Part shown: in pieces, positions 5,189-50,515 of the stretch
Numbering within the stretch: position 1 is the first letter of the stretch
Layout of the letters: each line of letters begins with the position of its first letter
Assembly: GCA_964541675.1 (NCBI GenBank)
Contig: CAZIPW010000003.1
Location: 22,770 to 86,769, forward strand
Source of the DNA: an uncultured Verrucomicrobiota bacterium
Lineage (GTDB): Bacteria; Verrucomicrobiota; Verrucomicrobiia; CAZIPW01
Direction of reading: 5' to 3'
Length of the DNA: 64,000 nt
Notes under the pieces: model-generated
Database searches by the model: none
What the model saw: the letters and a program-made list of their open reading frames with translations, nothing else
What the model was told of the DNA's origin: nothing
Program-made: the position numbers and the translations under genes

Positions 5189-6097
5189 CTATCCGCCGAT
5201 CAGCTTGAGCGCTATTTGGCTTTGGGAGTTGGCCTGTGCCAGCATCGAGGCACCGGACTGCACCAGGATCTGGTACTTGGCGTAGTTTGTGGACTCGGAA
5301 GCCACATCGACATCGGCAATCTGACTGTTGGCACTCTCCAGATTCTGCTCGTTGGTCGTCAGGATCTCGGTGGCGAAATTCAGTTGGCTGGTATATGCAC
5401 CGTTTTGAGCACGCAAGGTGGCGATTTCCTGAATGGCAGACGTGATTGTCCCCAAGGAAATACCGTTGCCCAAACCATTCGCAATGTTGTCCGTGGACTC
5501 CCCTGGCATCAGTTCACCACCTACTTTATAGAAATTGGTGGAGGGGTCGTCGATAGCTGGTTTTGCAATGTCCACCTTTTGACTTCCATCGGCAGAGATC
5601 GCAACTGACAGCGTGCCGGCCGGTATAGCAAACAGAGAGACACCGTTAAAGTCGCTCTGCGTAATACTATTCAGCTGACCCTGTAATTGTTTAAATTCAG
5701 TCTCATAATTGGCTTTATCTGAAGAAGACTTGGTCACGTCGTTGTAGAGGGTTGCCAACTGTGACATACGGTTCAGGATGTTGCCTGCCGTCTGGAGTGA
5801 ACCATCCTGCGTCTGGAGAAAAGAAATGGCGTTGGCTACATTCGACTGGACTGCCTGCGTACTACTGATGGAAGCTTGCAGCTTCATCGACACGGCAAGA
5901 CCACCGGGGTCATCCGAGGGGGTAACGATCTTGGAACCGCTTGAAAGGCGGGCGAGTGATTTTTGCAGGGCAGTTTCACTGTTCTGCAGATTGATCGCTG
6001 CGGCCGACGCAGCCGTATTTGTATTTATGACGATTGACATATATCTTCCTTGACTGGCCTTCCCGCCATTCCTTGGCGGGCTCGTGTTCAGAAACAC
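5189..6097 (-). CDS. flagellin (paralog 1, 302 aa)
   Basis: N-terminus INTNTAASAAAINLQNSE..LARLSSGSKIVTPSDDPGGLAVS and C-terminus ADVDVASESTNYAKYQILVQSGASMLAQANSQSQIALKL match the conserved flagellin D0/D1 helices; the central region differs from paralogs 2-4. Confidence 0.85.
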   Translation of the reverse strand: MFLNTSPPRNGGKASQGRYMSIVINTNTAASAAAINLQNSETALQKSLARLSSGSKIVTPSDDPGGLAVSMKLQASISSTQAVQSNVANAISFLQTQDGSLQTAGNILNRMSQLATLYNDVTKSSSDKANYETEFKQLQGQLNSITQSDFNGVSLFAIPAGTLSVAISADGSQKVDIAKPAIDDPSTNFYKVGGELMPGESTDNIANGLGNGISLGTITSAIQEIATLRAQNGAYTSQLNFATEILTTNEQNLESANSQIADVDVASESTNYAKYQILVQSGASMLAQANSQSQIALKLIGG

Positions 6098-6185: not shown

Positions 6186-7016
6186 CTATAACAACAGCTT
6201 GAGGGCTACCTGGCTTTGGGAATTGGCTTGGGCCAACATCGTGGCGCCGGTTTGTACCAAAATCTGGTACTTGGCATAGTTTGTGGACTCTGAAGCCACG
6301 TCAACATCAGCTATCTGGCTATTTGCCGCTTGCAGATTCTGGGCATTCGTCGTCAGGATCTGGCTGGCAAAATTCAACTGACTGGTGTAAGCACCGTTCT
6401 GGGCTCGGAAGGTCGCTATTTCTTGGATGGCGTCTGTAATCTGCCCCAGTGAGATACCCCCCGTGGCCAACCCCGCTGTGCTAGTCTCAACGGTCCTATA
6501 CGTCTGGCCGGTATCGGCAGAAGCAAGATATGGCTTTGTAATGGTAACCTTCTGGGTCCCATCTGCGGAAGTGGTAACTATCAGGCTTGACGAGTGGCTG
6601 GAACCAAAGAGTGAAACACCGTTGAAGTTCCCTGCATCAATACTACTCAGCTGCTGTTGGAGCTGGGCAAATTCAGTCTGATAGTTGGTTTTGTCTGAGG
6701 AAGATTTAGTCACGTCATTGTAGAGGGTCGCCAATTGCGACATACGATTCAGGATGTTGCCTGCCGTCTGGAGTGAGCCATCCTGCGTTTGGAGAAACGA
6801 AATGGCATTTGCCACGTTTGACTGGACGGCCTGCGTGCTGTTCACCTCGGCGGCCAGTTTCATCGAGACTGCCAGACCTCCAGGATCGTCCGAAGGAGCC
6901 ACAATCTTTGAACCGCTGGAAAGCCGTGAAAGCGATTTCTCAAGGCTATATTCGCTGTTTTGCAAATTGATTGCGGCTGCGGAGGCGGCTGTATTTGTAT
7001 TAATAGCAATCGACAT
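6186..7016 (-). CDS. flagellin (paralog 2, 276 aa)
   Basis: Same conserved N- and C-terminal flagellin helices as paralog 1. Confidence 0.85.
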   Translation of the reverse strand: MSIAINTNTAASAAAINLQNSEYSLEKSLSRLSSGSKIVAPSDDPGGLAVSMKLAAEVNSTQAVQSNVANAISFLQTQDGSLQTAGNILNRMSQLATLYNDVTKSSSDKTNYQTEFAQLQQQLSSIDAGNFNGVSLFGSSHSSSLIVTTSADGTQKVTITKPYLASADTGQTYRTVETSTAGLATGGISLGQITDAIQEIATFRAQNGAYTSQLNFASQILTTNAQNLQAANSQIADVDVASESTNYAKYQILVQTGATMLAQANSQSQVALKLLL

Positions 7017-7154: not shown

Positions 7155-8786
7155 CTAAGAGTGCAATGTCTTAGATGCTTCAAGGTTTCCCCGCAGAACA
7201 TTTGACTGTTGTATGTATGAGTCAGCCAGCTGCTCCAACTCCATCAAACACGTATCCCAAAAAGTCAGCCTGGTCTCTATCGGCGGGAAAAGATATGGCA
7301 TAATTTTAAGCGAGTATGCTCCCAACATCATTCCATTGGCAGAATCTGAAAATATATGTCTTAGTCTCTGGATAACTTCCTGCAAGTTTCCGGTTTTAGC
7401 CAGGGCCGCCAGATGAGGCATCATAGCCCGCAGCGCTTCCCCAAATCGCAGAATCTTGTTTGCAATCTGCTGGTCCCTGTCCGAAGAAATACCCTGCGGA
7501 ACAGGTAGTTTTGCCAGCAACGATTCCTTATCTATCGGGGGGCTATGCAGGACAAATTCCCCCGGACGCAATACCGTTGTATTACGCAATCTGGCACCAC
7601 GATCGGAGACAACTATTACTCTCCCAGTCGGATAGGAGGCTATTCTCTGATCCAAGGCGCGCCAATCTCCTATGACATGGGTGGGAATCTCTGCTTCGAA
7701 ATTCCCGGGAACCATGGGAAATTCCTGCTGCGCGTTAAAACCGGAATTGGCATACGTATTTGCATCCACCTCACCATGATGACGCTGCACAGAACCCTGA
7801 CTGGTGGCTGACGTGCTTAGTGAGAGATCCATCCCCAGAATATAAATTGGTGAACAGCCCATGAAATAGGCCAGCTCTATGGCAGTCGCGCCACAGTTAT
7901 CGCATACCGAGCTTGCCGTTTTAGAGACCCCCTGAGCCGCCAGCCAATCCAGCGTCAACTGATTTCCTGACAAATAGTACCGAGTTGGACGTGGCAGAAC
8001 ATCTGACCAATCTGGAGGACTGATGGCCGTTAAAATGGCCCGGCCGGGGACCATCACACCCGGAGGCAAACATTTCGCCGCTGTTTTGGCCACATCTACG
8101 GAAACCATGAAATCGGCTCGGACCCCCATGTTTGAAAGAGCCTTAAGCGAAGAGTCCCCGGCAAATATTACTCCCCTGTCAGCCAAGCGAGCCAATTCCG
8201 GTGCGGACACAGAGAATGATGGCCCAGCACCACAGACAAAAGCAGGAATCCCGGATAAGGCACCTTTCCAGTTATTTGGCAAACGACGGCTCATATACTC
8301 CGTCATATTATTGATGAGATTAGACTGCCACGCAAAGGCGTCCTGCTGTCTTGTTACGCGTATACGGTACTCTTCCTCCAAGAGCGAAACCACGCCCTCA
8401 ATCATTGTCGCATAGTGGTCTTGGAACTTCGTTGGAATCTGCTTTGTGATATACAAGGAAGGCATAAGCCTGGGCGTCTTAATCAAGAAAGTCCCCAAGA
8501 TCTCGCGCCAATTCACATCTTTTGTGACAGGCAGACGTTCCCAATACTTGCAGCCTGAAAATATCCGTTTCGATACATCGACAGCTCCTTCATCATCCAC
8601 TATCCACAACAGGCGCTCCATCGGCCCAATCTCGCGCATATGATCTCCCTGCGCGCGCCCAATCAGGATACAACTATCTGCTCCCTGAAAAGATTTCTTT
8701 GTATGGAAGTCGCCCATTGTTCTTACCTTCAAGATGTCAGGGGTATAAAGAACCGTCAAACGCAAAACCTGCCCAGTGTCATTCAA
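7155..8786 (-). CDS. motility accessory factor-like protein (Maf/DUF115, 6-hydroxymethylpterin diphosphokinase MptE-like fold); putative flagellin glycosyltransferase
   Basis: Central motif FVCGAGPSFS..VIFAGDSSLKAL..ADFMVSVD matches the DUF115 signature (GxGPS ... vD); 543 aa; sits inside the flagellin array; paralog of the 57963-59807 gene. N-terminal start uncertain because the terminator of flagellin 3 lies at the annotated start. Confidence 0.65.
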   Translation of the reverse strand: MNDTGQVLRLTVLYTPDILKVRTMGDFHTKKSFQGADSCILIGRAQGDHMREIGPMERLLWIVDDEGAVDVSKRIFSGCKYWERLPVTKDVNWREILGTFLIKTPRLMPSLYITKQIPTKFQDHYATMIEGVVSLLEEEYRIRVTRQQDAFAWQSNLINNMTEYMSRRLPNNWKGALSGIPAFVCGAGPSFSVSAPELARLADRGVIFAGDSSLKALSNMGVRADFMVSVDVAKTAAKCLPPGVMVPGRAILTAISPPDWSDVLPRPTRYYLSGNQLTLDWLAAQGVSKTASSVCDNCGATAIELAYFMGCSPIYILGMDLSLSTSATSQGSVQRHHGEVDANTYANSGFNAQQEFPMVPGNFEAEIPTHVIGDWRALDQRIASYPTGRVIVVSDRGARLRNTTVLRPGEFVLHSPPIDKESLLAKLPVPQGISSDRDQQIANKILRFGEALRAMMPHLAALAKTGNLQEVIQRLRHIFSDSANGMMLGAYSLKIMPYLFPPIETRLTFWDTCLMELEQLADSYIQQSNVLRGNLEASKTLHS

Positions 8787-8861: not shown

Positions 8862-9722
8862 TTAGCTTCCGATGAGTTTCAGAGCAATCTGGCTCTGGGA
8901 ATTGGCCTGGGCCAACATTGAAGCGCCGGACTGCACCAGGATCTGGTACTTGGCGTAATTTGTGGACTCAGAAGCCACGTCAACGTCAGCAATCTGGCTG
9001 TTGGCGCTCTCCAGATTCTGCTCGTTGGTTGTCAGAATCTGGCTGGCGAAGTTCAACTGGCTGGTATAGGCACCGTTCTGGGCTCGGAAGGTCGCTATCT
9101 CTTGAATAGCGTCCGTGATCTGCCCCAGCGAGATACCTCCGGAGGCCAATCCCGCGGTGCTGGTCTCAACAGTGTTATAGGTCTTGCCGGTAGAAGTATC
9201 GGCCACATAAGGCTTGGTGATGGTCACCTTTTGAGAACCATCGGCCGAAATGGCAACACTGAGTGTATCACCCGATGCACCGAAGAGAGAGACACCGTTG
9301 AAGGTTCCCTGGTCGATGCTCTTGAGCTGATCTTGCAGCTGGGCAAACTCAGTCTGGTAGTTGGCCTTGTCTGAAGAAGACTTGGTCACGTCGTCGTAGA
9401 GGGTCGCCAATTGCGACATACGGTTCAAGATGTTTCCCGCCGTCTGCAGCGAGCCGTCCTGTGTCTGGAGGAACGAGATCGCGTTCGCGACATTGGATTG
9501 GACAGCCTGCGTGTTGTTGATGGAAGCTTGCAGCTTCATCGACACGGCAAGACCACCGGGGTCATCCGAAGGAGTAACAATCTTCGAACCGCTTGAGAGG
9601 CGGGAGAGTGACTTCTGCAAACTCGCTTCAGAGTTCTGCAGATTGATAGCGGCGGCTGAAGCCGCGGTGTTTGTATTTATGACGATTGACATATTTATCT
9701 TCCTTGATTGAGATTGCGTCAT
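8862..9722 (-). CDS. flagellin (paralog 3, 286 aa)
   Basis: Conserved flagellin termini; near-identical to paralog 4 along the whole length. Confidence 0.85.
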   Translation of the reverse strand: MTQSQSRKINMSIVINTNTAASAAAINLQNSEASLQKSLSRLSSGSKIVTPSDDPGGLAVSMKLQASINNTQAVQSNVANAISFLQTQDGSLQTAGNILNRMSQLATLYDDVTKSSSDKANYQTEFAQLQDQLKSIDQGTFNGVSLFGASGDTLSVAISADGSQKVTITKPYVADTSTGKTYNTVETSTAGLASGGISLGQITDAIQEIATFRAQNGAYTSQLNFASQILTTNEQNLESANSQIADVDVASESTNYAKYQILVQSGASMLAQANSQSQIALKLIGS

Positions 9723-10178: not shown

Positions 10179-11033
10179 CTAGGAACCCAATAGTTTCAGA
10201 GCGATCTGGCTCTGGGAATTGGCCTGGGCCAACATTGAAGCGCCGGACTGCACCAGAATCTGGTACTTGGCGTAGTTTGTGGACTCAGAAGCCACGTCAA
10301 CGTCAGCAATCTGGCTGTTGGCGCTCTGCAGATTCTGGGCGTTGGTCGTCAAGATCTGGCTGGCAAAGTTAAGCTGGCTGGTATAGGCACCGTTTTCAGC
10401 TCGAAAAGTCGCTATCTCTTGGATAGCGTCTGTGATCTGCCCCAACGAGATACCTCCGGTTGCCAATCCTGCGGCACTGGTCTCAATGGTACTGTAGGTC
10501 TTACCGCCAGAAGTATCGGCCACATAAGGCTTGCTCATGGTTACAGTCTGAGAACCATCGGGAGAGATAGCTACCTGCAACGTAGAATCGCTACCACCAA
10601 AGAGCGAGACACCATTGAAGGTTCCCTCGTCGATGCTTTTGAGCTGATCTTGCAGCTGGGCAAACTCGGTCTGGTAGTTGGCCTTGTCTGAAGAAGACTT
10701 GGTCACGTCGTTATAGAGGGTCGCCAGCTGCGACATACGATTCAAGATGTTCCCCGCTGTCTGCAGCGAACCATCCTGCGTTTGGAGGAACGAAATGGCG
10801 TTCGCGACGTTGGACTGGACAGCCTGCGTAGTGCTGATGGCAGACTGCAGCTTCATTGACACAGCCAGACCACCGGGGTCATCCGACGGAGTGACAATCT
10901 TCGAACCACTCGAGAGGCGTGAGAGCGACTCCTGCAGTTGCGTTTCCGAGTTCTGCAGGTTGATAGCGGCGGCTGAGGCCGCGGTGTTTGTATTTATGAC
11001 TATTGACATATAATCGTCCTTGATTACTCGCAT
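10179..11033 (-). CDS. flagellin (paralog 4, 284 aa)
   Basis: Conserved flagellin termini. Confidence 0.85.
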   Translation of the reverse strand: MRVIKDDYMSIVINTNTAASAAAINLQNSETQLQESLSRLSSGSKIVTPSDDPGGLAVSMKLQSAISTTQAVQSNVANAISFLQTQDGSLQTAGNILNRMSQLATLYNDVTKSSSDKANYQTEFAQLQDQLKSIDEGTFNGVSLFGGSDSTLQVAISPDGSQTVTMSKPYVADTSGGKTYSTIETSAAGLATGGISLGQITDAIQEIATFRAENGAYTSQLNFASQILTTNAQNLQSANSQIADVDVASESTNYAKYQILVQSGASMLAQANSQSQIALKLLGS

Positions 11034-11098
11034 CCCGTCCGTGGGTTGCGTTCCGCCGTGGGTAATAGTCGCCCACGATCAACTAAGTTCACCCATGT

Positions 11099-11127
11099 AG
11101 ATCGGCACTTTCACGAAAATTTAAATA
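11099..11127 (-). promoter_or_regulatory. putative sigma-28-like promoter upstream of flagellin 4
   Basis: Minus strand reads TATTTAAATTTTCGTGAAAGTGCCGATCT, resembling the TAAA-N15-GCCGATAA flagellar class III consensus; about 70 nt upstream of the start codon. Confidence 0.3.
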
Positions 11128-11328
11128 CACTTAACAACTTTTTTGTCAAAACAGTGTAAAAGCCCGGTTTCTATTGGGCACAGTCTGCTACTTGTCCGTT
11201 TTAGTTGGCGATTTTCAGTACCAGAATAGTGTTTTTGCTCACATCAAAGAGTGTTCTGATAGCCCAAAAACTCCCCTATATATGCGGACTACGATCGGTA
11301 AGACCTCTTGTGCGGGCGTTTAAAAGGA

Positions 11329-11880
11329 CTAATGTATGTACGGTTCGTAAACGACTTTCTCTTTGCTGTCGTCCGTATCATTCCTCGCCGTATGCACCTC
11401 TGCGTGCTTATCAACTGCCGGACGCCCGTTCAGCGCTTCATACAACTGGCGGTTTTCCAAATCCAGCAGTTGTGATTTCTTCGACAGCTCTTCCACCCGT
11501 GATTGAAGTTCTTCTTGCTTTACTTTTAAAATATTATTCTGTCTCTCAAGCTCCGCCCGTTCTTCATTAAGGGCGCTGACAGATGAACTGGAAACGGGGC
11601 TGGAGTTGTGATTCAACCGGGTCAAAGCACTCTCTAGGTGATTGGAGAGCCTCGCAATCAACGCGTCTTTCTCCCGGATTTCCTCCTGCGTCTGTTGCAG
11701 CCGGACCATCGGATCGGTGGCGGGATTTTCCTGGGCACTTTCGCTTAAGGAAGTGTTTTGCACACTGGCCTGCATCGGGATCGGCGAAACGCCAGTTCCA
11801 GCCGTATCTACGGAATCAGCGGCCCACAGCACCCCTGCGTGCTCAAGCAAAAGAACCGCCATTAAGTACCGCCATCTCAT
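11329..11880 (-). CDS. hypothetical secreted coiled-coil protein (183 aa)
   Basis: Signal-peptide-like N-terminus MRWRYLMAVLLLEHAGVLWAADS; heptad-rich region EELQSRVEELSKKSQLLDLENRQLYEAL. Confidence 0.45.
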   Translation of the reverse strand: MRWRYLMAVLLLEHAGVLWAADSVDTAGTGVSPIPMQASVQNTSLSESAQENPATDPMVRLQQTQEEIREKDALIARLSNHLESALTRLNHNSSPVSSSSVSALNEERAELERQNNILKVKQEELQSRVEELSKKSQLLDLENRQLYEALNGRPAVDKHAEVHTARNDTDDSKEKVVYEPYIH

Positions 11881-12039
11881 CCCCTCTTACTTCGGCTTTT
11901 TCTCCACTTTTTTTAACTCTTTTCATGCGGTTCTGTAAAAGAATCATAAATATAGTATCTGGAACATCATCCATTTCAATGTAAACAGTCCGTCTGAATG
12001 GATTGACTCCTCAAGGCGACGCGTGATTTAGTCGTACAG

Positions 12040-13965
12040 ATGATCTCCCTGCCGCTTGAACGTTTGATTGCTCTCTACATGGGAGCCCCTCTATTAATCT
12101 TCTTAGGGTCCTGGATTGTCTCCCCCCTAAACATATTGCTACTGGCCTTGGGAGTCTGCTGTCTCTTCAATGTTTTCCGGCAACGACATGATGTCCATAT
12201 TTCCAGAAAAGAGCTCCTATTGGTTCTGTGCTTCTCGACTGTGTGCTGTCTGGTGGGCGGGGTGGGCGGATATGCCATGCAAAATAGCGACTATCTGAAA
12301 CATAACTTTATTTTTGAGTCGCTTGCGCATAACTCATGGCCCGTTACCTTCCAATACCGCGATGGCACTGTTACGTCCCTGGTTTACTACTTTGGCTATT
12401 ATCTCTGCCCGGCCATCATCGGCCACTTCTTTGGTAACACAGCCATGGATTTCGCATATTTTGTCTGGACTATTCTGGGACTCGTATTGGGATCTGTCTG
12501 TTTCATCAGATTCTTTAAACTCCCGGCTTGGACCCTTTTCCTCCTGTGGGGATTATCTGGCCTAGAGTTGGTGGGGAATATCGCTACCCATAAGTTATTG
12601 TTTAATCTCAATTCCACCTATTCATGGTGGGCTGAACCCATACGTTTTGTATCTTTGACAGAGACATTTCTTTGGTCCCCAAATCATTTTTTGGCTGCTT
12701 TTCTCAGTATATCATTGTATCTCCAGGCGTTGGAACAACAGCATATAAACAAAGCTCTCGCATGGATATGTCTGGTCTTCTTTTGGAGTCCTTTTATAGC
12801 CATCGCATTGGCAATATACCTTATACATACAATATGGAAGGGGAATCTCAAGAATCTATTTAACGCCGTTGGAACAGGTCTTCTGGTCGCCTTCCTTTTT
12901 CCCTTACTGGTATTCTACTCGTCGAGAATCTGCCCGGATCATCTTTATTTTCTTGGCAACATAAAAGAGTTTCAACAGGTGTATCTGCCATCCATGCTTT
13001 GGGAAGTCCTAATTTGGTTACCCATCATACGTTTTCACTATTTTTCCAGATGGGAATTATTGATATCAATTGCCGCCCTTTTAGTAATCCCCTTCTTTAC
13101 CGCAGGAGCTATGTACGATCTTACTTTTAGAACAACAGTTGTTCCACGTCTTGTTATGTGGGGATTCGTTCTGATGTCCATTATCAAGGAGCCAAGAACT
13201 TGGCGTATTGTCGTATTTAGCACTATCTTTATATTAGGCAGCTTATCTCCTATAATATCCATTTATAAACAGGTAGGTCCCCGGGCCAAGATACCGCCAC
13301 TGTTTAGCAAATATTGCAAACAGGAACGAAAGGATTTTTGGTCTGAAGAAAGTGATGTTATTACCAACCAATATCTGGGGAACTTAAAACGCAATCTACT
13401 TACTGACAGCATACTGCAACCCACGACTGCCCCCTGTAAACTTGATATGAGTCTGGCAGAATCAAAAATTTGCCGAATATATTCCAATTTTCACTATGAA
13501 CAAAACGCCCATGATAGCGGCTATTACAAATGCGGGGCTCTTGCAAACATGACCTTGGTGTGTCACGAATCCGGCTATCTCATTACCATCCAGTTGACCG
13601 CCCGGCCTATTGTACTGCATCAGCACTACGGCCTATGTTTCTTTAAACAGCCCATCATTGATGCAGCAGCCCTGGATATCTATGAGCCACCGCTGAAAAG
13701 ATTTCTGTGTCTGAAGGAATTCGCGGATATCCCCGCCCTTAATGCCAAGACACCCAGAGTTATCACCGAAGGAAAGATTGATGTCGCCGATGGAGGAACC
13801 CCTGTCTATATTCACACCTATCTCAAACGGGGGGCAACTCGCATTTATATCACCTCGAACGATTTGGCCACTGGCAAAACTGATGTCGATAACTATTCTT
13901 TTATCCTCTCCGACATCAAAGTCCGGATCGGCATTCTCCACGGTCCCAATGAGATAGATCTATAG
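12040..13965 (+). CDS. large polytopic membrane protein with C-terminal soluble domain; GT-C-like glycosyltransferase candidate (641 aa)
   Basis: About 11-12 predicted TM helices over the first 400 aa, then a soluble domain of about 230 aa; clear paralogy to 55951-57945 (for example KHNFIFESL..FQYRDGTVTSLVYYFGYYLCPAIIGHF..FIRFFKLPAW against KHNFMFNVL..VQYSDGTVISIVYFIGYYIVPAIIGAH..FLRYFRLPAW); convergent with a GtrB-like GT2. Confidence 0.6.
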   Translation: MISLPLERLIALYMGAPLLIFLGSWIVSPLNILLLALGVCCLFNVFRQRHDVHISRKELLLVLCFSTVCCLVGGVGGYAMQNSDYLKHNFIFESLAHNSWPVTFQYRDGTVTSLVYYFGYYLCPAIIGHFFGNTAMDFAYFVWTILGLVLGSVCFIRFFKLPAWTLFLLWGLSGLELVGNIATHKLLFNLNSTYSWWAEPIRFVSLTETFLWSPNHFLAAFLSISLYLQALEQQHINKALAWICLVFFWSPFIAIALAIYLIHTIWKGNLKNLFNAVGTGLLVAFLFPLLVFYSSRICPDHLYFLGNIKEFQQVYLPSMLWEVLIWLPIIRFHYFSRWELLISIAALLVIPFFTAGAMYDLTFRTTVVPRLVMWGFVLMSIIKEPRTWRIVVFSTIFILGSLSPIISIYKQVGPRAKIPPLFSKYCKQERKDFWSEESDVITNQYLGNLKRNLLTDSILQPTTAPCKLDMSLAESKICRIYSNFHYEQNAHDSGYYKCGALANMTLVCHESGYLITIQLTARPIVLHQHYGLCFFKQPIIDAAALDIYEPPLKRFLCLKEFADIPALNAKTPRVITEGKIDVADGGTPVYIHTYLKRGATRIYITSNDLATGKTDVDNYSFILSDIKVRIGILHGPNEIDL

Positions 13966-14976
13966 CCGGTGGGGCCCTTCGGCCATTTCAAGTTCGTCCC
14001 CGAGATGGTCCTGAATAATCCAGGTCGGGCGGTGTTTGACTTCCTCGAAGAGCCTCCCCAAATATTCGCCCTGAACCCCCATACAGATCAGCTGTACTCC
14101 TCCCATAAAAAGTACGCTCATCACAATAGTGGCATACCCCGGAACAGGCCCCCAACCATAGGTCGCAAAGAAATTGCCGAAGATTCTTTGTAGCAGGGTG
14201 AATATGATCCCCACTAGAGAGAGACCTGATATCCAAAAACCCAGCATGGAAGTCAACCGCAAAGGAGCTGCCGAAAAAGATAAAATGCCGTTTAGCGCAA
14301 GTTTATTCAATTTTCTGAAGTCATATTTGGACTTGCCAGCTGCCCGCGCATTCCTTTCATAAACAACGCCTATTTGTTTGTATCCCACCCAGGCCCTCAG
14401 TCCCCGCACAAAACGTTCGCGCTCAGGCATTTGTTTGAGCGTTTCTATCACCACTCTATCCATCAGACAGAAATCACCCGCATCCAAAGGCATCTTAAAA
14501 TCCACCATCCGGGATATCAACCTATAGAAGAACCAGTAGGAAAACCGCTTCATCCAGTTCTCTTTTCTTTTGGCACGCACAGCATATACTACCTGGTAGC
14601 CTTCTTTCCACTTCGAGATAAAATCTGCAATCAGCTCCGGCGGATCCTGTAGATCTGCATCTACCACAACCACCGCATCCCCTTTGGCCAAGGAGATACC
14701 GGCCGATATAGCCGGTTGGTGACCAAAATTGCGGCTAAACCTGACTGCGCAAAAACGATTATCTCTCAGGTTCTGCTCTTTTATAAGCTGCCAGGAACCA
14801 TCTGTTGAGCCATCGTCAACAAGAAGAACCTTCCAGGACACCTCCCAAGACGCGGCTGTTTTGGTTATCCTTTTGAAAAGCTGAGGAAGTACCGCCTCCT
14901 CATTATAGCAGGGCACCACCACGGTAATTGAAGACATCATTCCTTGATAGGCCAAATGCGACCCGTATGCAAGCAT
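13960..14976 (-). CDS. GT2 polyprenyl-phosphate sugar synthase (GtrB/CsbB/DPM1-like glycosyltransferase)
   Basis: VVVPCYNEE..LLVDDGSTDGS..VDADLQDPPE (DxD) motif and two C-terminal TM helices, the typical architecture of GtrB-type bactoprenol-sugar synthases. Confidence 0.85.
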   Translation of the reverse strand: MLAYGSHLAYQGMMSSITVVVPCYNEEAVLPQLFKRITKTAASWEVSWKVLLVDDGSTDGSWQLIKEQNLRDNRFCAVRFSRNFGHQPAISAGISLAKGDAVVVVDADLQDPPELIADFISKWKEGYQVVYAVRAKRKENWMKRFSYWFFYRLISRMVDFKMPLDAGDFCLMDRVVIETLKQMPERERFVRGLRAWVGYKQIGVVYERNARAAGKSKYDFRKLNKLALNGILSFSAAPLRLTSMLGFWISGLSLVGIIFTLLQRIFGNFFATYGWGPVPGYATIVMSVLFMGGVQLICMGVQGEYLGRLFEEVKHRPTWIIQDHLGDELEMAEGPHRL

Positions 14977-15016
14977 ATCATCAGCCAGTGCCCATTATAA
15001 ACATCATCTGAGACCA

Positions 15017-15403
15017 TCAATAAGACAAGGATGGTCCACCACTTGTCGATGTCACAGCCGTCTTTTGATTGAGATTTTTGAGGCTATAGGTATATCCGCT
15101 TGGTATATAACTGGACAGTGTTGAAGCGACATATCCCAAATATTGGTTCAGCGCGCCGTATTTCAATGCATTGGTCTTGGCATTGAAAGAAGCATGGGCG
15201 GCGTAACCATATTCCAATAGATATTGAGACTTGGCTGAATTGAGAATTATGGCTCGGTTGCTTGCATTGCTGTTTGAAGCCACTCCCTGCGCCCAGCTGA
15301 AAAAAGGCACAGCCGCAGCCAGAAGGAGTGCCATCAGAGAAATGACAACCATTATCTCTATCAAAGTAAATCCGCTTGCCCTATTAATACTTGAGATAGA
15401 CAT
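15017..15403 (-). CDS. type IV pilin-like pseudopilin (128 aa)
   Basis: Prepilin N-terminus SGFTLIEIMVVISLMALLLAA (G/FTLIE class III signal). Confidence 0.7.
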   Translation of the reverse strand: MSISSINRASGFTLIEIMVVISLMALLLAAAVPFFSWAQGVASNSNASNRAIILNSAKSQYLLEYGYAAHASFNAKTNALKYGALNQYLGYVASTLSSYIPSGYTYSLKNLNQKTAVTSTSGGPSLSY

Positions 15404-15788
15404 CTTTTATATGCATATTACGCGGGGCCGGATTGTTCCCCGATGAATCGGGGTCCGGCTCATTCCAGGAAAGTGTAAGCGCCAACTTTTTTAATGTCGA
15501 CGCTGAACTCTGTGTAGTGGCCATAGACGCCGTGTAAGCCACTCCGTTGAGATAATATCCTTTGGTAATTCCAGATACCGTCACACCTGCACGCCAGCCC
15601 TCCCCTATCCTTCTGCTCTGCAACAGCGCCTCATTTCTATCCTGTTGGACAAGCATCGACGAGGACATTCTCATACTTCCATAGTAAAAACCCACCAGAA
15701 ACGCCGCCAGCAATACCGACATAGCCATGACTTCCAGGAGGGAAAATCCCTCCGTGGGGGAACTTCTTTTACGGGTATTAACGCGCAT
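15384..15788 (-). CDS. type IV pilin-like pseudopilin (134 aa)
   Basis: Prepilin-type N-terminus TEGFSLLEVMAMSVLLAAFLVG. Confidence 0.65.
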   Translation of the reverse strand: MRVNTRKRSSPTEGFSLLEVMAMSVLLAAFLVGFYYGSMRMSSSMLVQQDRNEALLQSRRIGEGWRAGVTVSGITKGYYLNGVAYTASMATTQSSASTLKKLALTLSWNEPDPDSSGNNPAPRNMHIKDVYLKY

Positions 15789-15789
15789 A

Positions 15790-17031
15790 TTAGTGGCCGG
15801 CCGAGTGCATCAGCACTTGCCCTATTCCAAACAACGGCAGGAATATTGCAAACACAATCACACCGACAAACACAGCCAATACTATAGTCACAGCAGGCAC
15901 AATCGTTTGCTGCAGACGATCAATCACCACCTCCATCTCCCTCTCAAAGGTCTTGGACAGGCGATTCAATACTTCTTCTATTTCGCCCGATGCCTCGCCA
16001 GACTCCACCGCAGCCGCCAACCGATCGCCCATCCCGCCAAACTGATCCCCGTGGGATTGAAAAGCTATCGTCATGCTGTCACCCTTGTTGATCATGTCGC
16101 AAATCTGGGCGAAAACACGCTCAAAATAAACTGTGCCCGTGGATCTTCCCGCTATGGTAAGCGCCTTCGCCATTGGAATGCCAGCCCCCAACAATACAGC
16201 CAATGTTCTACAGCCATTTGTAATCGCGGATTTTCTCAGGAATTCGTTTATCATCGGTATAGTCAACATGGCCCGGCAGTACCACATTTGATATGACAGC
16301 CACTTGATGTAGTTGGCCCAGATGATCACCAGTACAATTGGCGCTATCAGCAAAATGGGGTATGACTGCAGAAAGTCAGATATGGCAACAACAAATTTTG
16401 TGATCCCAGGCAACTGGCCGCCTAGGTTGTCATATATTGTCTTGATCTTGGGAATCAAAACCGCCGTGAATATATAACCTACCACGCAGGCCATCACGAT
16501 TACGATACATGGGTACGTAAGCGCTGACTGCAGCTGACGCCTATAATCAAGCCGTTTGGAGAGAACTCTGACCAATTCCGAAAATGTCTCTCCGAGGGTA
16601 CCCGTGCTTTCCCCTTCTTCGATGAGTGCCAGCGTTGTGTCGTCCAGAACATTCTTGTGCCTGGCGAATGCCGCGTGCAGCAGCTCTCCACTCAATAGTC
16701 CGTGCACAATGCTCATTGTTATGATTCTAACTCCCAGCTTCGCAGTCGCACGCGCCTGTAAAAGGAAAGCCTTCACCGGATTGAAACCGACCTGCATCAA
16801 CGGAGACATCCCTTCAAAAAAAACAACCTGATCTTCCAGACTAAAGCGTTTACTATAGCTCTTGACCATCTGATCAGCCCGCTTCTGGGGAATGACGCCT
16901 ATACTGAGTATTTTTTGCGGTACGCCGACAGAAATAAAAGAGTCGACCTCCTCCCTGTTATACGCGGGTATCAGCCACTTCTTTATTTTGCCCGTTCTTG
17001 GATGTTGTGTAGTTACCCCGTATATTTTCAT
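15790..17031 (-). CDS. pilC: PilC/GspF-family inner-membrane platform protein (413 aa)
   Basis: Size, three TM segments and the duplicated GspF cytoplasmic domain pattern; 2 nt from the upstream pseudopilin gene. Confidence 0.8.
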   Translation of the reverse strand: MKIYGVTTQHPRTGKIKKWLIPAYNREEVDSFISVGVPQKILSIGVIPQKRADQMVKSYSKRFSLEDQVVFFEGMSPLMQVGFNPVKAFLLQARATAKLGVRIITMSIVHGLLSGELLHAAFARHKNVLDDTTLALIEEGESTGTLGETFSELVRVLSKRLDYRRQLQSALTYPCIVIVMACVVGYIFTAVLIPKIKTIYDNLGGQLPGITKFVVAISDFLQSYPILLIAPIVLVIIWANYIKWLSYQMWYCRAMLTIPMINEFLRKSAITNGCRTLAVLLGAGIPMAKALTIAGRSTGTVYFERVFAQICDMINKGDSMTIAFQSHGDQFGGMGDRLAAAVESGEASGEIEEVLNRLSKTFEREMEVVIDRLQQTIVPAVTIVLAVFVGVIVFAIFLPLFGIGQVLMHSAGH

Positions 17032-17153
17032 AGATATTGCAACAATAAGAAGCCTAGTTGCTCTACGACGGAACTCTTTCGTGGGTTAAGCCAGGAATGA
17101 TCTGAATAAAAAGCCCCTGGAAATTTCCAGGGGCTTTTCAAAGCAATTTGCGA

Positions 17154-17705
17154 CTAGTAGCCGAAACCGGTAGTAGAGCGACCGGTAACAGTCCAGTGAC
17201 GAACGTCAGTAAAAGCTATCTTAATGCGCTTACCTAAAGCTGTAAATGAGGTCGACGGCGCGATAAAAGGATCGCGCGTGGGGTTCGGGGCTGTAGTAAC
17301 AACAGTCCAGCCTTTTACGAGATCCTCTATAACCCCCGCAGGGACTGATGCATTGGTCCAAGAACCCGGGTAGTTGATTCTGCCACCTGCTACTGGTTTG
17401 GCCCAGTTATAGGCACTTGTTGGACCACTAGAATAAATGTTGGCCCCTGTTGTACTACCTGCCGTGGTATCGGCACCAAGGGCTATCCAGCGCGCAATCG
17501 CGCTAGCCACCACCTGTGCATCGCGCTGTTCGGCTGTGGCTTGCGCCCACATGGTGTAATTTGCCACATATGGCAAGGCAGCTACTATCAGTACAGCCAT
17601 GATCGCTATCACGGCCAGCAACTCTACGAGGGTAAAACCTCTACGGGTTTGAAAGTTGTTCATAGGCATCATACTATTTAGATAGTTTATATTAACGGTA
17701 TGCAA
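17154..17705 (-). CDS. type IV major pilin candidate (183 aa)
   Basis: N-terminus RRGFTLVELLAVIAIMAVLIVAALP, the canonical type IVa prepilin leader plus a hydrophobic alpha1 helix. Confidence 0.8.
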   Translation of the reverse strand: MHTVNINYLNSMMPMNNFQTRRGFTLVELLAVIAIMAVLIVAALPYVANYTMWAQATAEQRDAQVVASAIARWIALGADTTAGSTTGANIYSSGPTSAYNWAKPVAGGRINYPGSWTNASVPAGVIEDLVKGWTVVTTAPNPTRDPFIAPSTSFTALGKRIKIAFTDVRHWTVTGRSTTGFGY

Positions 17706-17734
17706 GACTTTTCTTAAAGGGAAATATATCTCTA

Positions 17735-19948
17735 TTATGTCAGTTCCAGATCGAGTTCCGCGTTATGGCTCATCACTTCATCAAAGTCCGTACGCCCCGA
17801 TATAACCTGTCTTAGAGCCTCAGAAAAGAGCGGATGGTATCCGGATCGCTGGGCTGCGCGATATATCTCCGTACCGGGGACTTCTCTTGCTATCAAGTCT
17901 TTGATTTCTAAAGATACCGGGCAGAGTTCCATTATGGCACGCCTTCCAGTATACCCTGTGTTTTGGCAATTATGACACCCGTTGTGGCCAAAGACCATAC
18001 CCTCCCCCTTCAAAAACTCATCCATGATGGTCCGAAGGGGTTTATTTAGAGAACAATTGTCTGGCATATAGTGTGCGATAATTTTTTTTTCTCTCTCTGT
18101 AGAGGGGCGGATCAGTTTACAATCACAGAGTTGTCTGATGAGTCGTTGGGCCTGCAGTAATATCAGACAGTCCGCTATGTAAGATGACTGTATACCCATA
18201 TTACGGAGTCTGCCGACAGAAGCTATCGCATCGTTCGTGTGGAGCGTTGAAAGTACCAGGTGTCCGGTCAATGCCGCTCTGATAGCCTGTTCAGCCGTCT
18301 CTTCGTCACGAATCTCTCCCACCATCACAATATCCGGGTCATGCCTGAGTACGTGCCGCAGCAAGCGGCCAAATGTTAACTCTATTTTGCTATTCACGGC
18401 TATCTGTTTGGCTCCATTGATCTCTATTTCTGGTGGATCCTCCAAGGTAATCACATTTACGTCCGGGGTATTGACCGTATTCAGCATGGCCGCCAACGTG
18501 GATGTTTTACCGCATCCCGTAGGCCCTGTTACCAGGATCAACCCATAACTGTGTGAGATGGCTTGCTTTATGATCAGCTCCTGTTCTGTAGGTAACGTAA
18601 GATCCGCCATTGTCTTGATTGTCACGCTCTTGTCCAAAAGACGCAGAGCCACGCTCTCAAACTCTCCAGATGGAATAACGGAAACACGGATCTCCACCTT
18701 TCTCTCCCCCACCTTGACCGTAAAGGTTCCGTCTTGCGGTAACCGATGTTCGGCCACATCCAAGTCTGCTTGCACTTTTATGAGGGACACAACCGCGGAA
18801 TAAATGTTATAGGGCAGCATCGCCAGGTCCACCAAACTTCCATCCACACGCAGTCTGAGCCTCATCTTATTATTGAACATATCTATATGCAAATCGCTGG
18901 CCCGGCTGACTGTGGCACGGTAAAAAGCATAGGAGAGTATCTGCCTTGCATTATTGCCGTCCAGTTCCCTGATCTTGGCAATGGCATTGGCATCAATGGA
19001 GAAAACCTCTTCTTTCCTCTCATTATCCTCATCATCGGCCACTTTGACCGCCGCCTTGCCCTTGGATTGGTCCAGAATCAGGCGGATCATCGGTTCCGTA
19101 ACCGCGCAGGCAATCACCTGTTTGAATGTATTGTCACTGTCCAACGTGCGGGCATTGAGCTCGTCCAAAAACTTTCCGGCCTGGGAAAGCGAAGGCAGTA
19201 ACATATAGTACGTGTTGGCCAGCCTTGCGTAACAAACAGCCTGGTATTTCTCCAACATAACCTCCGGAATGGTTTTCTGCGCCTCCTCGTCCACGCTGAT
19301 CGCCCTGATCGGCACCATTGGAGAGTTGCGCCCCAGGGCTATAATACCACACAGAAGGTCCTCTTTCCCCGCCATCAGTTTCTCCAGTTCCTCGATACTT
19401 CTGTTGTCGTGTTCGTCAAAATCATACAAATAGTGGTTTCTAACCAGCCACTCCAGCAGCTGCAGGGGATTGCCGAACGCTGCTGCGGGCGGCATGGGGA
19501 ATTGCGCCTGTGCGCCCCCATCCCCCAGTAATTCCAGACATATTTGTTGATATTTTCGGTAATCCTCAAACCCTATCGTTACCTTGAAGAAAGTGCCTTC
19601 CGGCAGTCCCAATGTATCACGAAAGTTGGGATAGAAATGCCCCAAGACCAAAATAGACCCTACATTGGCAACAGGTAACCACGGCAGATCAGATGACGGC
19701 GCCATATGGTAATATTTTTGCATATGCCTCACTATCGCGCGCACCGTTCCCGTGGGTACCGCGCTTGTACAGGGAAAGAAGGGGGCTTTGAATCGCCTGG
19801 CCAACAGATTGATGACATTCGCCTCATTGATACCCAGCCGCGAGAGCACCTGCAGGTGGTTCTCTCCCTGGGCATGATCAACCTTGCCACCGACCAGCCG
19901 GATAATCTCCCGTGCTACTTCCGGATAACTGTTACTGGCCGCCGTCAT
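17735..19948 (-). CDS. pilB: PilB/GspE-family assembly ATPase (737 aa)
   Basis: Walker A GPTGCGKTSTL, VGEIRDEETA, TGHLVLSTLHTND and a C-terminal tetracysteine motif (CDC..C..C..CQNTGYTGR). Confidence 0.9.
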   Translation of the reverse strand: MTAASNSYPEVAREIIRLVGGKVDHAQGENHLQVLSRLGINEANVINLLARRFKAPFFPCTSAVPTGTVRAIVRHMQKYYHMAPSSDLPWLPVANVGSILVLGHFYPNFRDTLGLPEGTFFKVTIGFEDYRKYQQICLELLGDGGAQAQFPMPPAAAFGNPLQLLEWLVRNHYLYDFDEHDNRSIEELEKLMAGKEDLLCGIIALGRNSPMVPIRAISVDEEAQKTIPEVMLEKYQAVCYARLANTYYMLLPSLSQAGKFLDELNARTLDSDNTFKQVIACAVTEPMIRLILDQSKGKAAVKVADDEDNERKEEVFSIDANAIAKIRELDGNNARQILSYAFYRATVSRASDLHIDMFNNKMRLRLRVDGSLVDLAMLPYNIYSAVVSLIKVQADLDVAEHRLPQDGTFTVKVGERKVEIRVSVIPSGEFESVALRLLDKSVTIKTMADLTLPTEQELIIKQAISHSYGLILVTGPTGCGKTSTLAAMLNTVNTPDVNVITLEDPPEIEINGAKQIAVNSKIELTFGRLLRHVLRHDPDIVMVGEIRDEETAEQAIRAALTGHLVLSTLHTNDAIASVGRLRNMGIQSSYIADCLILLQAQRLIRQLCDCKLIRPSTEREKKIIAHYMPDNCSLNKPLRTIMDEFLKGEGMVFGHNGCHNCQNTGYTGRRAIMELCPVSLEIKDLIAREVPGTEIYRAAQRSGYHPLFSEALRQVISGRTDFDEVMSHNAELDLELT

Positions 19949-21873
19949 TGTTGTCCTTGCTGTTCCTCTTTCTTGATAACTTCGTCGGTCTCAGGATCAA
20001 TCACATTTTTTCTCCACGCCCGATTGCGGTCCACCTCCTTGTTGATCCAGTCTTTCGACAAACTCTCGGTGCGTTTGACGAAGGTGCCATCCGAGGTGCC
20101 ATCCTTCATGATGGTCGGGGTTATAAACAAATAAATACTGGAATGCGTCAGGGAGCGCGACTTGTTTTTGAACAGGAAGCCAAACAGCGGAAGGTCGCCA
20201 ACCCCCGGCAATCCACTGGTGGTATTATCATCCTCCACGCGTTCCAGCCCTCCTATGGCCAATGTATAGCCCTGCGGCACGTCAACCATGCCGCTATAGG
20301 TGGAATTATTCGTGGTCACCGCGCCGGTATATTGGTTAGCTGTCGTATTGGCGGCCTGCGTTGATATCTGTATTGAGATATTGAGCTGCACCAGGGTGTC
20401 ATTGATTTGGCGGGGAGTAATCGAAATGGTCGTACCCACCTGTTGTGTTCCAAGTGTTTGCGTTCCAACCACCGCTCCGGTTGTATTGTCCTGCGAAACC
20501 AGGTGGGTCGCACTCGCCAGCGGTATATTCTCCGTGGTCTGAATCTGCACCTGTTGGCCGTTTTGCGTCACCACGCTAGGATAGTGGGCAATCTGACTAT
20601 CCGTCTGACTCTGGAAAGCGGAGAGACCTACCTGAAAGTTCTGAGATTGAATCAGCATACCCGTTGGAATATGCAGATGGTTCGTGTGACCCAGATTCAA
20701 CGTGGTACTTCCATTCGCGGGCACTATTTGGACAGAGTTTCCATTGCTCCAATCAAAACCCATGCTTGTACTGGGATCTCTTGAGCTTTCCAGGAACATG
20801 GCTTCTATGGCAATATTGCTGGTCGGATTGTCAATAGCTTTAAGGTATTGTTCTACCCATTGGTGTTGTATGGCTGTGGCAATGACGAAAAGTGTATTGG
20901 CATCGGCATCGTAGCTGACATAGGTGTTCTGGCTGACGTTGACTGTATTGTTCGCGTTGCTCTTGCTACTGGTATCTGAAGGCTTTGTATCCGCGACATT
21001 GGCAGTGGTTTCTACTTGGCCATCGGAACCTATCGTTCCGCCAAAAGTGACATCTATTCCCAGGATCTCCTGCAGCGTATTCATGACCACCTGCCCGGTG
21101 GTGCTCGTTGCATTGGTACTCGTGGGGGTTATGCTTGCACCATTTGTCGCGGTAGACGTACCGCTGGTACTGTTACTGGTTGTAGTGCTGTTAGTAGTGG
21201 AGTTTGTCGACGAAGCGCCATTGGTTCCGCTCGTACTGGTGCTAACGGTGCCCGATCCGCTGGTTGATTGTCCCAACTGAATATTCTTCAGCTTGTAGAT
21301 CTTGGCGTAATACTCCGCCTTATCTTTCTTGCGGATAAACCAAAGGCCGTCCTGTTCGTAGATGCCCAAGCCAAAATTGTTTGCCAGAACCTCCATGGCC
21401 TTAAAGGGCGGCATATGCATATTGACCGTCACTTTTTCCGTGTCCAATGCTGGCAGAATGTAGTTGATGCCCGCAGCCTCCGCCAAATATCTTAGAGCGT
21501 CCCTGATAGGTACTTCTTCCATGCGGATATCTGCCACGGGCTGCCTAAGGAGCTTTTGACGCGGCGACACGATCACGCTCTCCACACTTATCTTGTTGGT
21601 AAACTTGCCATCGTTGGGTGCCACCTGTGCGGCCACCCCATTGCCATTGCCTTGATCAGTCTTTATTTTCTCATTGGCTGCAGTCTTGGGCACGGTTGCC
21701 ATCTTGTCTTTCTGCATAAATGGCGGTAAATCAAACTGATCTGATTGTGCCGCTGCCGCAGCAGCCTGAAGGGGGCCAGACTGTGCTCCCAAGGGGCAAA
21801 TCACCACGAGCAGCAAGAGTAAACCCCACCCAAGATTAGCGAAAATACGGATAATGGACGATGACTCTTTCAC
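19945..21873 (-). CDS. pilQ: secretin (PilQ/GspD family, 642 aa)
   Basis: Signal peptide; C-terminal secretin motif GLPGVGDLPLFGFLFKNKSRSLTHSSIYLFITPTIM; internal Ser/Thr/Asn-rich linker. Confidence 0.85.
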   Translation of the reverse strand: MKESSSIIRIFANLGWGLLLLLVVICPLGAQSGPLQAAAAAAQSDQFDLPPFMQKDKMATVPKTAANEKIKTDQGNGNGVAAQVAPNDGKFTNKISVESVIVSPRQKLLRQPVADIRMEEVPIRDALRYLAEAAGINYILPALDTEKVTVNMHMPPFKAMEVLANNFGLGIYEQDGLWFIRKKDKAEYYAKIYKLKNIQLGQSTSGSGTVSTSTSGTNGASSTNSTTNSTTTSNSTSGTSTATNGASITPTSTNATSTTGQVVMNTLQEILGIDVTFGGTIGSDGQVETTANVADTKPSDTSSKSNANNTVNVSQNTYVSYDADANTLFVIATAIQHQWVEQYLKAIDNPTSNIAIEAMFLESSRDPSTSMGFDWSNGNSVQIVPANGSTTLNLGHTNHLHIPTGMLIQSQNFQVGLSAFQSQTDSQIAHYPSVVTQNGQQVQIQTTENIPLASATHLVSQDNTTGAVVGTQTLGTQQVGTTISITPRQINDTLVQLNISIQISTQAANTTANQYTGAVTTNNSTYSGMVDVPQGYTLAIGGLERVEDDNTTSGLPGVGDLPLFGFLFKNKSRSLTHSSIYLFITPTIMKDGTSDGTFVKRTESLSKDWINKEVDRNRAWRKNVIDPETDEVIKKEEQQGQQ

Positions 21874-36955: not shown

Positions 36956-37141
36956 TACTATGGCTGATAGAATATTAACAGTAAGTCAAATGAGGAGCTT
37001 GCCGACCTTCGCTTCTGTAGCGGCTCGCGTCGCCCTGGAAGTCGCTAGGAACGCCAATCTTGGATTGCAAAGAGACGGTCAACAGGGGCCCAGTGGTCAC
37101 GGTCTTGGCACACCCAATATCTAGAAATTGGGTTTTTACTC

Positions 37142-38041: not shown

Positions 38042-38080
38042 CAGTTTACATGAACTAGCCCCGCGTGGCGAGACTAAGGT

Positions 38081-40240: not shown

Positions 40241-40872
40241 ATTATAGAAGGATAATATATTTTACGGGATATTCAACTATTGGATTATAGCACAGTGTGT
40301 GTTTTTACATCTAAATATTTGTTAAAATGTAAAATCAGCTTTCAGTTTGGCTCTCAAACCAACTGGGAGAAGGCTCAGGATAGGCATAATAGGCCATACG
40401 GTCGACGATGATGGTAAGGGGAGAGAGATGCACGGCATTAGTATGGTAGCCGGTTTTACGGCGTTCCAGGCGCGGGACCTGTCGGTTGACAAAAGAGACA
40501 TTGCGGCCGCTCTCGCGGATCTGGGAGCACCAGAAAGAATGCCACAGCTGTCCATTGAAGGATATTTTGACATGGTATATGATCGGTCGTGGCACGCGGG
40601 TTATTATAGCAGTTTGGATTGCGTTTTGGAAGATTAAAAGAGAGGTGGGATCTTTGTCTATAAATAAGATATACGTTGCCTTATAATCACTGTTATCTCA
40701 CTGTTTTACAGTGATGATTGGGCATCTTGTTCATCATTATCTAAGGCTGTGAAAATCCCGGGAAGAAGGGTTATAGGATTTATTGGACACATAAGATATA
40801 TTTGAGACTGCGGCGAAGGTACTGTGGACGAGGTGCAGACATTATAACAGATTTTGGGGAGAGGGTAGGGGT

Positions 40873-40905
40873 CAAACAAAAACCCCCGTGTCGGAGAGAC
40901 ACAGG
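40873..40905 (-). terminator. rho-independent terminator at the 3' end of the T4SS operon
   Basis: Minus strand: CCUGUGUC-UCUCC-GACACGGG hairpin followed by GGUUUUUGUUUG. Confidence 0.55.
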
Positions 40906-40929
40906 AGTTCCTAAAGAGCGGATCTTTAT

Positions 40930-41835: not shown

Positions 41836-41871
41836 GGAATTATGTACGGTTGGATTTTGATTAAATTTAGA

Positions 41872-43479: not shown

Positions 43480-43491
43480 ATTTTTATAGAA

Positions 43492-50513: not shown

Positions 50514-50515
50514 AA

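Follow-up and report, generated by a model that had tools for sequence, protein, structure and literature searches.

A GtrB-type sugar synthase convergent with an unannotated polytopic membrane protein beside a type IV pilus-like operon: a candidate extracytoplasmic glycosylation module

We examined a 64,000-nucleotide (nt) stretch of DNA from an uncultured Verrucomicrobiota bacterium (contig CAZIPW010000003.1, positions 22,770 to 86,769; herein the window), in which two genes run toward each other. FAM1, on the plus strand, encodes a 641-amino acid (aa) polytopic membrane protein; GT2, on the minus strand, encodes a family 2 glycosyltransferase (GT). The first-pass annotation of this DNA, made from its letters alone, had described two convergent open reading frames (ORFs) with a 6-nt overlap, which we confirmed at the exact coordinates (Table 1). 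The overlap is the palindrome CTATAG (13960-13965), within which the TAG stop of each gene is the reverse complement of the last Leu codon of the other. Both ORFs are real genes: GT2 matches PF00535 and PDB 5EKP, and FAM1 is polytopic and has 1,624 homologs. A minus-strand operon with the order secretin, PilB, pilin, PilC, pilin, pilin ends in GT2, which starts 40 nt beyond the last pilin gene. Four flagellin genes and a Maf gene, reported by the annotation as adjacent, are also present. Peat-bog and other samples yielded five metagenome contigs with the FAM1-GT2 arrangement, which are strain variants of one organism. For the phosphoglycerate mutase encoded in the window, the closest named relatives (~60% identity) come from Opitutales and Puniceicoccales MAGs, which points to a probable host in Verrucomicrobiota.

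The GT2 protein matches PF00535 (Glycos_transf_2, the GT-A catalytic domain) with E 1.9e-31 over residues 18-179, and residues 15-328 of its 338 align to residues 26-333 of Synechocystis GtrB (PDB: 5EKP; E 1.9e-87) with 47% identity over 307 aligned residues; the match to ArnC structures is also significant (E 2.8e-48). The key residues described for GtrB are the 94DxD96 motif, R122, the catalytic D157, and R200 (PMC4728340). In the alignment D106/D108, D168, and R211 of GT2 correspond to D94/D96, D157, and R200 of GtrB, while the counterpart of R122 is the aligned Arg in AVRAKRK (approximately R133-135). Two hydrophobic helices lie at the C terminus (~241-271 and 279-304). Judged by its sequence, GT2 is a genuine polyprenyl-phosphate sugar synthase of the GtrB/ArnC/PgfS class, a known family to which it is an unexceptional addition. 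The earlier call of a GtrB/CsbB-type enzyme, based on a DxD motif and C-terminal transmembrane (TM) helices, is upheld, and the profile search that the annotation had proposed likewise returned the GtrB class. A processive synthase was ruled out by the full-length alignment to GtrB, which includes the TM helices and all five active-site residues. The best full-length NCBIfam matches are PgfS (E 7e-78) and ArnC (E 1e-55); both scores fall short of the equivalog cut-offs (262 versus 500 bits and 189 versus 529 bits, respectively), so the sugar cannot be assigned from profiles.

The partner of GT2 proved far harder to place. FAM1 has no sequence match in Pfam, NCBIfam, or PDB up to E 10, whether searched singly or as a 96-sequence profile. 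A word-indexed homolog search, profile included, returned almost no relatives, a scan of genome contigs with the single protein returned none, and tblastn against phages gave no match. An exhaustive HMMER scan recovered the 1,624 relatives, counted as cluster representatives at E<=1e-3; most are ~480 aa long and cover FAM1 residues 5-415 without the C-terminal domain, and every source name encountered was "hypothetical protein". Species genomes in GTDB were then scanned in a motif-guided manner, with a pattern taken from a motif-selected alignment subset (A4), the earlier alignments (A1-A3) being too divergent. This yielded 382 loci in very diverse phyla, nearly all in metagenome-assembled genomes (MAGs); 80 of them were analyzed for locus statistics, using our own ORF calling, jackhmmer annotation, and a 6-kb neighborhood. 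FAM1 belongs to a membrane protein family (herein FAM) that is absent from Pfam-A (2025), NCBIfam 20, and PDB.

Comparison with known membrane enzymes gave the same picture. When 151 family members were compared with Pfam (96 of them tested to E<=10), no GT-C, Wzy_C, or transporter model matched; the unmatched GT-C models include PMT, PMT_2/ArnT, STT3, GT87, YfhO, Glucos_trans_II, and Emb. Aligned by hhalign with the proteins of neighboring genes (PMT_2, GT87-like, MptA_B, YfhO-like, and X633), the family profile gave probabilities of <1%, and FAM1 showed no MATE, Wzx, or GtrA profile match. Assignments of FAM1 to TfpW, TfpO/PglL, YfhO, and GtrC were each considered and rejected, the defining domains being absent. 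The annotation had called this protein GT-C-like: its polytopic character stands, with ~13 TM helices, but the GT-C identity found no sequence or profile match and a negative hhalign result. The suggested profile comparison with YfhO/ArnT/PglL-type families was likewise negative, and no profile identified the protein as a transporter.

Structure prediction was informative once the family alignment was supplied. The AlphaFold2 model built from 96 sequences has a predicted local distance difference test score (pLDDT) of 88.7 and a predicted TM-score (pTM) of 0.91, as against an uninformative single-sequence model (pLDDT 38). In the model, residues 1-412 hold ~13 TM helices, and a helical linker joins this part to a β-sandwich. 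Across the 96 members the Lys+Arg density alternates from loop to loop, at 0.17-0.25 in those assigned to the cytoplasm (FAM1 residues 46-56, 157-164, 232-239, 266-276, 329-339, and 383-391) and 0.03-0.10 in those assigned to the periplasm (74-121, 185-213, 293-309, and 352-367). In this predicted topology the N terminus would be cytoplasmic, and a short helical hairpin at 236-266 would carry a conserved WSPF turn. The Lys+Arg alternation would place all conserved polar motifs, as well as the C-terminal domain, in the periplasm. The conserved motifs are D84-x-x-K87-H88-N89, W100-P101, W212-x-P214, the W249-S-P251 turn, and G356-x3-D360-x3-R364. D84 (codon at 12289-12291) is invariant or nearly so in every alignment made; it sits where the first of the long periplasmic loops begins, behind TM helix 3 and not behind TM helix 1.

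A Foldseek search of the FAM1 model against PDB matched only the C-terminal β-sandwich, which resembles CBM6, CBM35, CBM61, and CBM22 carbohydrate-binding modules (CBMs), MAM domains, and a Cry toxin (E 4e-3 to 0.2; probability ~1; TM-score ~0.5 normalized to the CBM). Matches in BFVD were to tail-fiber and CBM-like domains, again in the C-terminal domain only. The β-sandwich is confined to a subfamily of ~650-aa proteins that includes FAM1.

Several independent observations tie the FAM family to polyisoprenyl-phosphate GTs. A GtrB/ArnC/DPM1-like GT2 gene lies within 6 kb in 18 of the 80 GTDB loci, and in ~11 it is directly adjacent and on the same strand; for a random gene we roughly estimate a background of ~1-2%. 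A UDP-galactopyranose-mutase (UGM)-like flavoenzyme is encoded at 13 loci. GT2 and FAM are fused in two of the 96 aligned members (P0036 and P0037) and at two of the 80 loci, with the GT2 domain at the N terminus of the fusion, which fits the inferred cytoplasmic N terminus of FAM. Stop and start codons overlap in an Elusimicrobia MAG (L032:5920-9538) between the genes for FAM (503 aa), a DPM1-like GT2 (238 aa), and a UGM-like flavoenzyme (477 aa), and upstream of this trio lie genes for a sensor kinase and an outer-membrane barrel of the FadL type. The genes glf, GT2, and FAM are grouped in Smithella, where glf is directly 5' of a GT2::FAM fusion gene, and in Bacteriovoracaceae. A plasmid of Sphingobium sp. 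TomMM7A (AP027313.1:1782-5044; L105) carries a FAM gene (E 3.6e-75) and, convergent with it, the gene for a GtrB-like GT2 that matches the GT2 of the window at E 3.6e-68; a methyltransferase gene lies between the two. All three are annotated as hypothetical or generic, and the convergent layout echoes that of the window. By analogy with these pairings, FAM1 is a putative user of a lipid-phosphate donor. The annotation had seen in the locus the logic of a GtrB enzyme working with a GT-C protein; the pairing of synthase and polytopic protein is backed by the 80-locus comparison, and it is the GT-C identity that is unconfirmed.

The ~650-aa subfamily also has a recurrent association with type IV pilus-class genes, which adjoin five of its six members. 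P0003, the closest homolog of FAM1 (L006), is flanked by two 90%-identical 172-aa pilin genes whose products are 40% identical over 68 aa to the window pilin at 17154-17705, a similarity that extends beyond the generic N-terminal helix. P0005 is divergent from a PilC gene, and P0007 lies 4 kb downstream of a secretin. FAM2, a second family member encoded in the window and recovered as P0004 on a 99.5-kb metagenome contig, is preceded by a Maf-like gene and, farther upstream, by another secretin and another PilB; P0006 also comes after a Maf-like gene, its contig being too short for any further context. In the wider family a PilA-type gene stands just upstream on the same strand at 8 of the 80 loci, and pilA, pilB, pilS, or pilR is nearby at ~12. 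The annotation had laid its emphasis on the flagellin array; the informative context is instead likeliest to be the pilus-like operon that holds GT2 as its last gene, and this context makes pilin the favored acceptor.

Table 1. Features of the window, with the basis on which each was assigned
Feature	Position	Strand	Basis
Flagellin array, four genes	5189-6097, 6186-7016, 8862-9722, 10179-11033		
MptE/Maf-like gene	7155-8786		
FAM1, polytopic membrane protein (641 aa) from a family without annotation, putative periplasm-facing GT	12040-13965	+	ORF, HMMER homologs, AlphaFold2
FAM1 membrane domain, residues 1-412	12040-13275	+	AlphaFold2 helices, Lys/Arg loop density
FAM1 C-terminal β-sandwich, residues ~465-641, CBM-like, predicted periplasmic	13432-13962	+	Foldseek
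GT2, GtrB-type polyprenyl-phosphate sugar synthase, 338 aa	13960-14976	-	PF00535, PDB 5EKP
Minor (pseudo)pilin, GFTLIE motif	15017-15403	-	N_methyl PF07963, E 1.4e-7
Pilin-like protein, prepilin motif GFSLLE	15384-15788	-	Motif scan; no Pfam match
PilC/GspF platform protein	15790-17031	-	T2SSF PF00482, E 1.5e-43
Candidate major pilin, Thr/Ser/Gly-rich, candidate acceptor	17154-17705	-	N_methyl, E 1e-7
PilB/GspE-type assembly ATPase	17735-19948	-	T2SSE PF00437, E 3.6e-108
Secretin	19945-21873	-	PF00263, E 2.2e-31
ArdC-like zincin	36149-36955		
TrbI/VirB10-like	41872-43479		
CagX/VirB9-like	43492-44364		
VirB4/TraG P-loop ATPase	50516-53074		
VirB2-like 130-aa ORF	54083-54475		
GT87/PIG-U-like polytopic protein, convergent with FAM2	54629-55924	+	Weak Pfam matches PF09594, PF06728; no NCBIfam match
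FAM2, 664-aa paralog of FAM1 (P0004)	55951-57945	-	BLASTP, 30% identity to FAM1, E 5e-74
Second Maf/MptE-like protein, 18 nt upstream of FAM2	57963-59807	-	NCBIfam PseD domain, E 9.4e-16

We propose, at about an even chance of being right, that GT2 and FAM1 form a two-gene extracytoplasmic glycosylation module that uses a lipid-phosphate sugar donor, with pilins as the likeliest acceptor. GT2 very probably moves a hexose-type sugar from a nucleotide sugar onto undecaprenyl or polyprenyl phosphate at the cytoplasmic face, as GtrB does. A flippase whose gene lies elsewhere, or conceivably FAM1 itself, would then carry the lipid-phosphate sugar across to the periplasm. On that side FAM1 would transfer the sugar from this donor, probably with D84 in the catalytic role, and its CBM-like β-sandwich may help to hold the acceptor. 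From the gene context, the acceptor would most likely be found among the Thr/Ser-rich (pseudo)pilins that the neighboring type IV system encodes, proteins whose globular domains would be exposed to the periplasm before assembly. The annotation had suggested periplasmic glycosylation of a surface structure (flagellar sheath or hook, pilin, or lipopolysaccharide [LPS]); among these candidates the pilus operon favors pilin, and the flagellar structures are unlikely.

Several points weigh against this proposal. No sequence, profile, or fold evidence was found that ties the membrane domain of FAM1 to any GT, no membrane protein of note stands among the top 50 Foldseek matches, and the conserved Asp follows TM helix 3, not TM helix 1 as in classical GT-C enzymes. 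The 64-kb window contains no flippase gene. FAM1 and GT2 converge and hence are not cotranscribed; within the ~650-aa subfamily the pairing of the two is known from one organism, the five contigs being strain variants. A GtrB-like GT2 is missing within 6 kb at 62 of the 80 family loci, and enrichment at the others was judged against a rough background expectation rather than a measured control. No pilus gene is found near the family member at 68 of the 80 loci, so that acceptors would differ across the family. Finally, two subfamily members are paired with cytoplasmic Maf-like proteins, which the model leaves unexplained.

The convergent, separate transcription units and the derivation of the subfamily pairing from a single species would also be expected if FAM1 and GT2 were unrelated neighbors, GT2 feeding other enzymes and FAM1 having some other role in the envelope. 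We regard this as quite improbable, since the pairing recurs in unrelated phyla and there includes fusions and overlapping genes.

The absence of a GtrA gene bears on a second alternative. The annotation had noted that no GtrA-like flippase was visible, and we too found no small four-TM ORF of this type (~120 aa) in the 64-kb window, where the only small multi-TM ORFs are the VirB2-like one and shadow ORFs. FAM1 might then not be a transferase at all: it could be the missing flippase for the lipid-phosphate sugar, or a polymerase or oligosaccharyltransferase of the Wzy/WaaL/TfpO kind, with undecaprenyl-diphosphate-linked glycans as its substrates. The lack of any GT homology is in keeping with this, the slot downstream of pilA is also typical of TfpO-type O-oligosaccharyltransferases (TfpW preprint), and the GT87-like GT-C protein elsewhere in the window could be the true transferase. 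Yet FAM1 has no Wzy_C, MATE, Wzx, or GtrA profile match; a dedicated flippase would not usually be expected to have 13 TM helices, extensive conserved loops in the periplasm, and a CBM-like domain on the same side of the membrane; and coupling to monophosphate-type sugar synthases, by fusion or in operons, fits a consumer of lipid monophosphates better than one of diphosphate-linked oligosaccharides. We therefore hold a nontransferase role to be improbable.

An acceptor other than pilin is a further alternative. With the same chemistry FAM1 could, in the manner of GtrC, decorate a glycan such as LPS O-antigen, capsule, or exopolysaccharide with a side-chain sugar, and its pilus neighborhood would then be incidental. 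The 68 loci without pilus genes speak for a glycan acceptor, as do the many loci at which the family member lies among other GTs and GT-C-like genes (PMT_2, MptA_B, DUF2079, and YfhO-like) and the resemblance of the C-terminal domain to CBMs, which are also found in the glycan-acting GT136 and Emb. Set against these are the pilus-class genes that adjoin five of the six ~650-aa members, one of them between two pilin genes, the embedding of GT2 in a pilus operon, and the absence of O-antigen and capsule genes from the window. On balance we consider a glycan acceptor unlikely for FAM1.

Service to the flagellum, through glycosylation of flagellin, hook, or sheath, is suggested by the flagellin/Maf array that FAM1 adjoins and by the position of two FAM paralogs directly after Maf-like genes, FAM2 and one on L019, a contig unrelated to the window. 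Maf-type enzymes, however, glycosylate flagellin while it is still in the cytoplasm, and its export then runs through the flagellar channel, so that it is not exposed to a periplasm-facing enzyme. Because it is modified in the cytoplasm and bypasses the periplasm, flagellin is an unlikely acceptor. The second Maf-FAM pair of the window, that of FAM2, has no flagellin nearby but is accompanied by a secretin and PilB, and none of the relatives examined lies in a flagellar locus. The flagellar link of FAM1 and GT2 is probably adjacency only, and we give a flagellar function very little credence.

Returning to the proposed pilin-directed module, its biochemical logic has clear precedents. As in the GtrABC systems of Shigella and Salmonella phages, a lipid-phosphate sugar would be made in the cytoplasm and used in the periplasm, and GT2 shares with Synechocystis GtrB, besides the 47% identity, the active-site residues and the same two-TM anchor. 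Unlike GtrABC, the window has no GtrA, FAM1 has no similarity to the GtrC family (no Glucos_trans_II match), the genes stand in a pilus locus and not in a prophage or O-antigen locus, and the likely acceptor is a protein. A GtrB-like GT2 is likewise paired with a large polytopic GT in CsbB/YfhO, in GtlA/GtlB (teichoic acid), and in PgfS-PgfM (Streptococcus mutans protein glycosylation); by contrast, FAM1 has no YfhO Pfam match and its host is Gram-negative.

Among pilin-modifying enzymes a close functional parallel is TfpW, which arabinosylates group IV pilin of Pseudomonas aeruginosa and also uses a lipid-phosphate monosaccharide donor made in the cytoplasm. FAM members in several phyla occupy the tfpW/tfpO slot just downstream of pilA. 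The 11 TM helices of TfpW come with a DDX motif in periplasmic loop 1 and a tetratricopeptide repeat (TPR) C-terminal domain, and the protein models on ArnT (TfpW preprint); FAM1 has 13 TM helices, a single invariant Asp, and a β-sandwich C terminus, without the DDX motif, the TPR domain, or ArnT/PMT_2 similarity. The donor pathways differ as well, being of GtrB type here and following a phosphoribosyl pyrophosphate (PRPP)/DprE route for TfpW. The O-oligosaccharyltransferases TfpO/PglL carry Wzy_C, for which FAM members show no match.

A precedent for an unassigned GT-C family is provided by GT136 (Citrobacter youngae ORF12). This GT-C enzyme ends in a CBM, works in a three-component system, and had no prior family when it was described; its catalytic Asp follows TM helix 1, and its nearest sequence relative is ArnT (PMC11127046). 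FAM1 resembles GT136 in combining a polytopic protein with a C-terminal CBM-type β-sandwich and, going by the description of GT136, is set apart from it by the position of its Asp and by its lack of relatedness to ArnT. With GT-C enzymes at large (7-13 TM helices) it shares a polytopic domain whose active side would be extracytoplasmic. We tentatively extend the proposal, as a possibility we rate below an even chance, to the idea that FAM1 founds a new CAZy-level GT family that depends on polyprenyl-phosphate sugars, faces the periplasm, and spans more than 10 phyla. One branch would specialize in O-glycosylation of type IV pilins. In the genome studied here the donor synthase is supplied by the pilus operon itself, and the enzyme may flip its own donor, a thought prompted by the lack of GtrA.

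Some features of the wider family are recorded here as side observations. At five loci in Burkholderiales, Thermomonas, and Methylococcaceae MAGs (L057, L069, L071, L086, and L091; e.g., L091:1413-7431), pilA is followed by genes for an unannotated ~630-aa polytopic protein, a PRK07208 FAD oxidoreductase related to UGM, and FAM. The ~630-aa protein has an RHDGILY motif after TM helix 1 and a soluble C-terminal domain. This set may be a furanose-type pilin glycosylation cassette. A 257-kb metagenome contig bears at least seven tandem FAM paralogs (L023:1876-18435; ~600-811 aa each, including P0002), an array that suggests a multienzyme glycan assembly line.

Within the window itself, a minus-strand gene (11329-11880), divergent from FAM1 across a 160-nt gap and kept in all strain contigs, encodes a 183-aa protein in which a signal peptide and a coiled coil are recognizable but which has no family match. 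The GC fraction is ~0.50 on either side of the FAM1 gene and dips to 0.448 across it (12001-14000), which may reflect the composition of a hydrophobic protein or acquisition from elsewhere. A promoter and terminator scan of 11000-17800 gave no excess of sites over shuffled sequence. The flagellin gene third in position in the array varies in length among the strain contigs (286 versus 276 aa; L002:6823-7653 and L005), which suggests recombination or variation inside the four-gene array. A conjugative type IV secretion module occupies 36149-54475, and upstream of the FAM2 cluster (region 61088-63884) are the gene for another PilB-like ATPase (61088-63400) and a fragment of a secretin gene; the FAM2/Maf2/PilB2 cluster may be carried by an integrative conjugative element.

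Extracytoplasmic glycosylation by a lipid-phosphate sugar synthase and a membrane transferase is already known; here the membrane component comes from a large, unannotated family. The FAM and GtrB-like pair on the Sphingobium plasmid AP027313 offers an experimentally tractable handle in a cultured organism. If FAM proteins are confirmed as transferases, they would constitute a new GT family and give a function to genes that recur beside pilA, glf, and GtrB-like genes in mostly uncultured phyla. They would also represent a second, TfpW-independent route to pilin glycosylation from lipid-monophosphate donors, with a bearing on the surface properties of pili and on recognition by phages and predators, and possibly a tool for glycoengineering.

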